Below, in pieces: positions 14,636 to 16,448 of a DNA stretch of 25,324 nt. Position 1 is the first letter of the stretch. Every line of letters begins with the position of its first letter. The translations under genes were made by a program, and so were the position numbers. Under the pieces are notes generated by a model that did no database searches, was not told where the DNA came from, and worked only from the letters and a program-made list of their open reading frames with translations. Source of the stretch: Eledone cirrhosa (Eukaryota). The DNA is taken from assembly GCA_964016885.1 (NCBI GenBank), contig CAXHJY010000324.1, forward strand, positions 1-25,324, read 5' to 3'.

Positions 14636-14794
14636 ATTGGAATAAATGCTCTGAAATAGCGATATATATGTGAATATAGACATAGAATATTCGAAAATAT
14701 TCTGTATGTTTATAATAAACATTTTGAAGACCTAATCGCTATAGAATAGAATACGTCACGTATTACAATTAGATTCTCGATAAAAGCAAGGGAA

Positions 14795-14837
14795 GTAATC
14801 TACGCGTTTCATTCTCGTTAGAAATCATCAGGACTAC
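14795..14837 (-). ncRNA. Type I hammerhead ribozyme (310-bp monomer 1)
   Basis: GUAGUC CUGAUGA U UUCU-aacg-AGAA U GAAA CGCG UA|GAUUAC; 6-bp stem I, palindromic stem III ACGCGU, cleavage between 14801 and 14800. Confidence 0.88.
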
Positions 14838-15104
14838 ATATCCAGTGCTTTTATCGAGAATGACACAGCTAGAGACTTATAGAATACTTAGCTGTGTACA
14901 GGAACTGGTTTGAAAGAGCGGTTGCCGGTCCGGCAGAAATTAGAAATTGGAATAAATGCTCTGAAATAGCGATATATATGTGAATATAGACATAGAATAT
15001 TCGAAAATATTCTGTATGTTTATAATAAACATTTTGAAGACCTAATCGCTATAGAATAGAATACGTCACGTATTACAATTAGATTCTCGATAAAAGCAAG
15101 GGAA

Positions 15105-15147
15105 GTAATCTACGCGTTTCATTCTCGTTAGAAATCATCAGGACTAC
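15105..15147 (-). ncRNA. Type I hammerhead ribozyme (monomer 2)
   Basis: Identical to 14795-14837. Confidence 0.88.
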
Positions 15148-15414
15148 ATATCCAGTGCTTTTATCGAGAATGACACAGCTAGAGACTTATAGAATACTTA
15201 GCTGTGTACAGGAACTGGTTTGAAAGAGCGGTTGCCGGTCCGGCAGAAATTAGAAATTGGAATAAATGCTCTGAAATAGCGATATATATGTGAATATAGA
15301 CATAGAATATTCGAAAATATTCTGTATGTTTATAATAAACATTTTGAAGACCTAATCGCTATAGAATAGAATACGTCACGTATTACAATTAGATTCTCGA
15401 TAAAAGCAAGGGAA

Positions 15415-15457
15415 GTAATCTACGCGTTTCATTCTCGTTAGAAATCATCAGGACTAC
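15415..15457 (-). ncRNA. Type I hammerhead ribozyme (monomer 3)
   Basis: Identical to 14795-14837. Confidence 0.88.
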
Positions 15458-15723
15458 ATATCCAGTGCTTTTATCGAGAATGACACAGCTAGAGACTTAT
15501 AGAATACTTAGCTGTGTACAGGAACTGGTTTGAAAGAGCGGTTGCCGGTCCGGCAGAAATTAGAAATTGGAATAAATGCTCTGAAATAGCGATATATATG
15601 TGAATATAGACATAGAATATTCGAAAATATTCTGTATGTTATAATAAACATTTTGAAGACCTAATCGCTATAGAATAGAATACGTCACGTATTACAATTA
15701 GATTCTCGATAAAAGCAAGGGAA

Positions 15724-15766
15724 GTAATCTACGCGTTTCATTCTCGTTAGAAATCATCAGGACTAC
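15724..15766 (-). ncRNA. Type I hammerhead ribozyme (monomer 4)
   Basis: Identical to 14795-14837. Confidence 0.88.
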
Positions 15767-16448
15767 ATATCCAGTGCTTTTATCGAGAATGACACAGCTA
15801 GAGACTTATAGAATACTTAGCTGTGTACAGGAACTGGTTTGAAAGAGCGGTTGCCGTCCGGCAGAAATTAGAAATTGGAATAAATGCTCTGAAATAGCGA
15901 TATATATGTGAATATAGACATAGAATATTCGAAAATATTCTGTATGTTTATAATAAACATTTTGAAGACCTAATCGCTATAGAATAGAATACGTCACGTA
16001 TTACAATTAGATTCTCGATAAAAGCAAGGGAAGTAATCTACGCGTTTCATTCTCGTTAGAAATCATCAGGACCTGATGATTTCTAACGAGAATGAAACGC
16101 GTAGATTACTTCCCTTGCTTTTATCGTTAGAAATCATCAGGTCCTGATGATTTCTAACGAGAATGAAACGCGTAGATTACTTCCCTTGCTTTTATCGAGA
16201 ATCTAATTGTAATACGTGACGTATTCTATTCTATAGCGATTAGGTCCTTCAAAATGTTTATTATAAACATACAGAATATTTTCGAATATTCTATGTCTAT
16301 ATTCACATATATATCGCTATTTCAGAGCATTTATTCCAATTTCTAATTTCTGCCGGACCGGCAACCGCTCTTTCAAACCAGTTCCTGTACACAGCTAAGT
16401 ATTCTATAAGTCTCTAGCTGTGTCATTCTCGATAAAAGCACTGGATAT

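Follow-up and report, generated by a model that had tools for sequence, protein, structure and literature searches.

A two-armed hammerhead retrozyme of the octopus Eledone cirrhosa and its insertions in the manner of Penelope-like elements

Metazoan retrozymes without long terminal repeats (LTRs), described in coral, mussel and axolotl, are non-coding, self-paired tandem arrays of 170-400-nt units that carry one type I hammerhead each and occur in thousands of copies; their cleavage and their RNA circles have been shown, and rolling reverse transcription of the circles was proposed, with Penelope-like elements (PLEs) as likely helpers (PMC7229834). PLEs that encode an endonuclease (Hydra, Neptune, Poseidon and Naiad clades) insert head to head, with an inverted, 5'-truncated copy, a tail of 30-40 bp at one end only and, in several clades, a preference for (TA)n (PMC8557442, PMC3846280, PMC11167929). 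The purified PLE protein of the anole makes cuts in both strands of AT-rich DNA and extends them, and synthesis begins at two neighbouring internal positions of the RNA, between which the tail lies (PMC11167929). In PLEs with an endonuclease, a hammerhead with a palindromic stem III lies upstream of the two start sites. Two questions are open in the literature: by what route animal retrozymes return to the genome, and why PLE insertion produces inverted copies that have a tail on one side only. Here we describe a family of 310-nt units in Eledone cirrhosa, starting from the unplaced contig CAXHJY010000324.1 of the 3.0-Gb assembly GCA_964016885.1, the whole contig of which (25,324 nucleotides, forward strand) was analysed and is called the window below. 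To judge from its sequence, the element is a non-LTR retrozyme, a known and, in a mollusc, expected kind of element, with unusually direct genomic evidence for the proposed mechanism. The literature that we searched, mostly without subscription papers and supplements, contained no report of octopus retrozymes or of retrozyme insertions with two arms and a tail.

The tandem units of the window begin at 14636, 14946, 15256, 15566 and 15874, the last one being partial (Table 1). They are 99.4-100% identical, and the three differences among them are each a one-base indel within a short base run, in keeping with the recent insertion that the initial annotation of this DNA had proposed. That annotation had also described a 310-nt monomer with one hammerhead per unit and no open reading frame, which proved exact; the longest ATG frame on a concatemer of units is 30 amino acids long. 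Its end point of 16071 did not hold, since the tandem units that it had recognized are followed by an inverted arm that continues to 16615. As the plus strand is C-rich on both flanks of the insertion, a single microsatellite tract was interrupted. Tandem units within the 170-400-nt range, one hammerhead in each, the lack of an open reading frame and a dispersed, multi-locus family devoid of LTR features are what is found in retrozymes. The 310-nt unit has no reading frame for a reverse transcriptase and a GIY-YIG endonuclease, as an autonomous PLE would, and both arms are long runs of units rather than one full and one truncated element. Unit positions are numbered from the predicted cut site (1 is the G of GAUUAC; the core begins at 280).

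Table 1. Positions of the retrozyme insertion, its parts and other features in the window
Feature	Position	Strand	Remarks
Left arm	14636..16072	-	4.64 tandem units; the tail-bearing outer (3') end (unit position 165) abuts microsatellite
Tail, ~35 nt (unit positions 131-165)	14636..14670	-	On left-arm end, absent from the other end
Inner junction	16072..16141		Strand switches twice for short stretches (sense, 55 nt; antisense, 18 nt), at 5' border of hammerhead core
Right (inverted) arm	16141..16615	+	1.53 units; the outer (3') end is the short end (unit position 130-139) and abuts microsatellite
Long (TA)/(TACA)-type microsatellite	11512..24942		Host of the insertion
Type I hammerhead motif, first copy	14795..14837	-	Predicted cut between 14801 and 14800; read by eye and by covariation
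Further full hammerhead copies	15105-15147, 15415-15457, 15724-15766	-
Full hammerhead motif of inverted arm	16449..16491	+
Hammerhead copies with truncated stem I	Cores at 16063, 16073, 16144	-, +, +
16-bp helix extending stem I	14773..14861 (14773-14788 with 14846-14861)	-	Among relatives, both partners changed in 9 of 15 scored pairs
Conserved structured domain (unit positions 60-144)	14967..15051	-	Closing helix and two hairpins; includes short end
ATTCTATAAG	14876..14885	-	Invariant in 17/17 aligned relatives
Four dual oxidase exons	230-5800	-	Residues 1234-1463 of Octopus bimaculoides dual oxidase, 91-96% match
Second hammerhead-bearing family, two copies	20797-21060, 24939-25204	+	Cores 20906, 25046; palindromic stem III ACUAGU
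Third hammerhead-like motif, solitary	11322-11360	+	GUCC/GGAC stem II, read by eye
Inverted duplication, ~1.4 kb	7419-8785 and 8946-10253		86-89% identical, microsatellite-rich, head-to-head like a PLE-type insertion
Fold-back element, ~210 bp	6278-6485		86% self-complementary, AT-rich end
Non-repetitive island within microsatellite	22031-22600	-	Zinc-finger-like reading frame

The hammerhead motif was identified by eye and then checked by covariation. It consists of stem I (GUAGUC/GAUUAC), the core (CUGAUGA and GAAA) and a palindromic stem III (ACGCGU), and it has the core CUGANGA...GAAA...UH, the three helices and the open stem I of type I. Stem II has 4 bp, and a U.U stands at 10.1-11.1 in the haplotype of the window instead of a purine-pyrimidine pair; this position is A-U in a natural haplotype fixed in nine loci and G-C or A-U in most relatives, and one axolotl retrozyme family also has U.U at the base of stem II (PMC7229834). 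The core showed no locus-fixed change. Searches against Rfam returned no hammerhead match at E up to 10 over two units, and the matches across the whole window were microsatellite noise. A stem III duplex between two units was predicted at -9.5 kcal/mol, which agrees with the earlier suggestion that the palindrome is suited to cleavage in dimers.

The unit folded better than shuffled sequences, both as a linear (z = -4.3) and as a circular molecule (z = -4.8, a branched fold with 60% of the bases paired). Perfect stems of at least 8 bp numbered 6, compared with 1.0 in shuffles (0/300 reached 6), and those of 6 and 7 bp were at chance level, the observed counts being reached by 158/300 and 25/300 shuffles. 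The 16-bp helix listed in the initial annotation is a perfect inverted pair, and all five palindromes given there are present, three of which were written with a 1-nt centre and are foldable only with a loop of at least 3 nt. In an alignment of 17 relatives, from which duplicate sequences had been dropped, 23 of 70 pairs had changed on both sides (14.7 in shuffles and 5-9 in slid controls), stems I and II among them. The core pair 3-8 was C3-G8 in 8 relatives and U3-A8 in 9, the latter being a known natural covariation of the hammerhead core (PMC4209133). Covariation supported the extension of stem I (94% paired), inner stem I, stem II, the 3-8 pair and two hairpins beside the short end. Two of the helices listed earlier are present here and turned out to be specific to the subfamily, out of register in the relatives: ACACAGCUA/UAGCUGUGU was only 40% paired there, and a shifted hairpin took the place of AAUACG/CGUAUU. 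Only 1 of 23 locus-fixed substitutions broke a pair or the core, as compared with 27 of 72 singletons (p = 0.0015) and a random expectation of 41%. To judge by these comparisons, the helices of the ribozyme and the structure of the unit are under selection. The conserved domain at unit positions 60-144 is likely to be the site recognised by a PLE protein, and ATTCTATAAG is possibly a TATA-like promoter element.

Genomic copies were counted by pattern searches. The 38-nt core haplotype had 4,198 exact matches (a control had 0), and the patterns of the two end types had 998 and 778 matches on the forward strand, from which, each end being listed once, we estimate 1,500-2,000 insertions of this young family. 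In older subfamilies, the tail motif had 5,372 matches, the same two end types recurred, with 24 ends of the tail type and 21 of the short type over 30 loci, and the central 14 nt of the tail were shared. We parsed the window and 65 further loci. For 10 of these the choice was made on the core and for 35 solely on the tail end; the other 20 came from the end lists and are biased, since several were taken as visible pairs. One locus without a match (L096) was dropped from the counts.

In 58 of the 66 loci, a minus arm was followed by a plus arm, the two being joined at their 5' ends, and no tail-to-tail arrangement was found. The other eight comprised five with one arm, one with a second arm of 7 nt, one running into Ns and one leaving the edge of the stretch. 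All 58 two-armed insertions had one outer end at ~130-139 (147 in one case) and the other at 163-172, and therefore a tail offset of ~35 nt, or of 26 nt if AT microhomology is counted as part of the element. The same pairing of a short and a tail end was seen where the second end had played no part in the selection, i.e. in 10/10 two-armed loci picked by the core (including the window) and in 33/33 two-armed loci among the 35 picked by the tail. An alternating TA-type tract adjoined 57/58 tail ends and 49/58 short ends; target-site duplications are unreadable within such tracts. Inner junctions lay at unrelated unit positions, mostly with an overlap of 0-7 nt. The longest arms reached 27 units, and the tail arm was the longer one in 33/58, with extremes of 370/8459 and 5881/1001 nt.

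We considered the possibility that the inversion was a fold-back artefact of long reads or assembly, as might be feared for a 25-kb unplaced contig that holds another large inverted duplication. Yet the polarity and the asymmetric ends recurred in 57 chromosomal loci with differing inner junctions, and we regard the probability of an artefact as negligible. The head-to-head inverted copy, the one-sided tail of 30-40 nt and the (TA)n target are those of PLE insertions, which, together with the in vitro work on the anole enzyme, points to a PLE as the helper. PLEs of the autonomous type in the same genome had the same two-ended layout with offsets of their own. The two-armed inverted insertion, the tail and the microsatellite target are not mentioned for other metazoan retrozymes in the excerpts of PMC7229834 cited here. 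A preprint on vertebrate retrozymes, in the portion available (bioRxiv 10.64898/2026.07.22.740005), likewise concludes that they derive from PLEs and are non-autonomous; it argues from co-occurrence and phylogeny and does not settle the mechanism, whereas our conclusion is drawn from the shape of the insertions and from haplotypes. Retrozymes were also seen in TA tracts beside or within PLE copies (L042, L057, L072, L034 and L049), where the two kinds of element nest at shared targets. In L055 (1499-1770), 272 foreign GC-rich bases were found at the inner junction; they had no match in Rfam, and at least 39 source copies cluster on C25 at 19-24 Mb.

The haplotype of the ribozyme region was the same in both arms in 51/52 loci, against 0.22 by chance (41/42 without the loci picked by the core), and only 7 of 528 units departed from the majority haplotype of their locus. 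Thirteen variants were each seen in one locus and were fixed wherever they were covered, in both arms, e.g. in 22/22, 18/18, 17/17 and 14/14 units; these variant tests exclude L057 as well as a misaligned stretch in L070 and another in L079. Among 605 junctions across the cut site, 556 were identical to those of the window, 45 belonged to three other recurring haplotypes and 4 carried isolated changes. Since 601/605 match four recurring haplotypes, the junctions bear no scars of template jumps. The 114 inner ends did not depart from a uniform distribution over the unit (p = 0.09), and 2 of them lay near the cut site, compared with 3.7 expected. In contrast, for the terminal repeat of PLE-H, a PLE family of this genome, 19 of 30 matches (which include some pairs of arms from one insertion) stopped within ~12 nt of one point near the core, ~30 nt past a TATA-like box, as expected of the end of a linear RNA. 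The long arms, the seamless crossing of the cut site and the uniform inner stops point to a monomeric circular template, and the rolling reverse transcription of a circle that had been suggested earlier gains support at the level of loci.

An alternative would be that a PLE performs twin priming on a linear multimer that is transcribed from a parent array and left uncleaved, with no circle and with the ribozyme as a passenger. In vitro, the anole PLE uses mainly uncleaved RNA as its substrate (PMC11167929), homogeneous daughters would be expected from a homogeneous parent array, and the circle is here a prediction. Yet copying of this kind can shorten arrays but not lengthen them, and it offers no way for a new variant to become fixed throughout both arms, which does not fit the 13 fixed single-locus variants and the arms of up to 27 units. 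Furthermore, the inner ends show no transcript start, and the helices of the ribozyme appear to be selected; we find this explanation unlikely. We also asked whether short PLE-derived monomers might insert and then expand in place as minisatellites through unequal crossing-over, a route proposed for vertebrate retrozymes (bioRxiv 10.64898/2026.07.22.740005). In L088 (6/28 units) and L055 (3/15), shared variants are scattered in a way that resembles local exchange, but both inverted arms are multimeric with a single haplotype, their outer ends are fixed while their inner ends are random, and where a position is represented repeatedly in both arms, its variants are fixed jointly, all of which makes such growth very improbable.

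A shared haplotype would follow directly if only the first arm were target-primed and the second were a fold-back or second-strand copy of it, the tail resulting from resolution of the intermediate by the endonuclease. Self-priming and endonuclease resolution have been proposed for the inverted copies of PLEs (PMC3846280, PMC8557442), and the junction of the window is nearly mirror-symmetric (277/279). When all inner junctions were considered (L041 excluded), 7/57 lay within 15 nt of mirror symmetry, compared with 5.7 by chance, which rules out a snap-back origin of the second arm as a general rule. Moreover, either arm may be by far the longer one, as the extremes given above indicate, and we judge fold-back copying improbable.

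The explanation that we favour, and consider probable, is that a PLE copied one predicted RNA circle from two start sites onto both ends of a cut. The array would first be transcribed. Adjacent hammerheads would then pair through the palindromic stem III and are predicted to cut between GUA and GAUUAC; since the stem III of a lone monomer is weak and cutting poor, the circle would persist. Ligation of the monomer into this circle is suggested by what is known of the family and by the seamless junctions. A PLE protein would bind the conserved domain, nick both strands of a (TA)n tract and prime one cDNA at each of the observed ends, ~130-139 and ~163-172. Each cDNA would roll around the same RNA, as the single haplotype suggests, for up to 27 turns, and the cDNA ends would join at the short microhomologies seen at the junctions to give the head-to-head array. 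Telomerase-like synthesis of the flanking microsatellite from an AUAUAU stretch was also considered and was rejected on the grounds that the flanks have no strand bias.

Several points weigh against this explanation. The circle, the RNA and its cleavage are all predicted from DNA alone, unlike those shown for coral, mussel and axolotl (PMC7229834). In the haplotype of the window, with its U.U at the base of stem II, the folding model gives stem II a probability of ~0.15 (0.9 in the natural A-U haplotype), and the predicted ribozyme may cut weakly. Eight of nine Xenopus retrozyme dimers remained uncleaved in vitro (bioRxiv 10.64898/2026.07.22.740005), and the main substrate of the anole PLE is uncleaved linear RNA, with no homology needed for priming (PMC11167929). 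The five one-armed loci do not follow the two-armed pattern; in L066, the haplotype switches partway along an arm, and some mixing is seen in L071, L079, L088 and L055. A cell dominated by a single homogeneous source array could also yield concordant arms. Kinship among the 17 relatives inflates the covariation counts, which are not independent, and the 65 fetched loci all lie within the first 115 Mb of one chromosome (C1). Finally, among the part of the many PLE families of this genome that was searched, none shared the tail sequence or the 35-nt offset: three families of the autonomous type have offsets of ~140, 70 and 70 nt, and a profile search of 51 further loci turned up nothing beyond retrozyme copies and weak matches.

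A search of the GIY-YIG family (50 loci) gave no shared tail either. PLE-1 (L127-L130, C1:183.737-183.760 Mb) is a young Hydra-like PLE in four tandem 6.67-kb units with an inverted truncated copy; it has intact frames of 830 amino acids with a CxCX5C linker and a hammerhead-like motif with a stem II insert of ~100 nt, and it had no match in Pfam. It does not match the retrozyme as a partner, its ends being ~140 nt apart and its tail not shared, and neither does the Neptune-like PLE-3, whose ends are 70 nt apart and which has no tail in common either. In a single case (L163:16-1530), an older retrozyme copy was fused directly to the endonuclease coding sequence of PLE-3, in what looks like one head-to-head insertion; a piece of retrozyme was found in 1 of 29 further PLE-3 loci. 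PLE-H is of the Hydra type, with a CxCX5C linker, and shares with the retrozyme 26/28 nt of the core and stem II, including the U.U, which echoes the similarity of vertebrate retrozymes to the terminal repeats of PLEs (bioRxiv 10.64898/2026.07.22.740005). With only the ribozyme core in common and an offset of 70 nt, it is no match as a partner either. Its terminal repeat (L291, L292, L259-L288) had 8,362 core matches and forms many tiny head-to-head insertions, which end at what is likely the transcription start.

The initial annotation had called the monomer viroid-like, a label that goes too far. The size, the hammerhead and the predicted circle recall Avsunviroidae and viroid-like satellite RNAs, but the retrozyme is encoded in the genome, its core is found on one strand of the unit only, unlike the ribozymes in both polarities of hammerhead viroids, the circular fold is branched, and we saw no sign of RNA-to-RNA replication or infectivity. 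An autonomously replicating RNA that is now and then reverse transcribed into the genome would fit the size, the self-pairing and the existence of several haplotypes. In addition, an identical 340-nt contig is present, once each, in runs X1 and X2, which carry other organism codes. An assembler, however, makes such a contig from a tandem array as well as from a circle, so that it fits both equally and has no bearing on expression; run X4 covers introns of the neighbouring dual oxidase (Duox) region as genomic DNA would. With thousands of genomic templates and a ribozyme in one polarity, we regard a replicating RNA as highly improbable.

Cephalopods edit their RNA heavily. A>G changes made up 9/24 locus-fixed events, as compared with 4/72 singletons (p = 0.0004), four frequent ribozyme variants having been set aside as background markers. 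All nine fell within A-U pairs, and three backgrounds carried the change at the UAG of position 276. The tolerance of G-U pairs explains part of the excess; yet C>T in G-C pairs, which should be equally tolerated, was found in 0 cases (p = 0.02 by events, 0.08 by sites). The excess is thus suggestive only as a trace of A-to-I editing. That the arrays are prints of one edited circle, copied by a PLE dimer from two starts, with a core taken from a Hydra-clade PLE, is a tentative idea that we rather doubt; if it were true, octopus retrozymes would provide a natural assay of twin priming by PLEs and an example of RNA editing that is inherited. If a PLE does copy a circle, the hammerhead would be under selection for its part in producing the template, and a PLE protein could be guided by a compact RNA to insert rolling multimers. 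The family links the two questions raised at the outset through features that can be counted (two fixed starts, a single haplotype in each insertion and the lack of any sign of an RNA end), and with its 310-nt template and the candidate enzymes, the idea could be put directly to the test in vitro.

The remaining features of the window are listed in Table 1. The Duox exon that we searched is single-copy in the assembly, so that the unplaced contig holds the end of this gene; an empty allele was sought near it, with the same single copy as the outcome. As the window contains no earlier Duox exon, the array probably lies in an upstream intron. The island within the microsatellite resembles the 3' end of a long interspersed nuclear element (LINE). 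Tandem copies of the second hammerhead-bearing family, ~500 nt apart, were found in L037 and L248.
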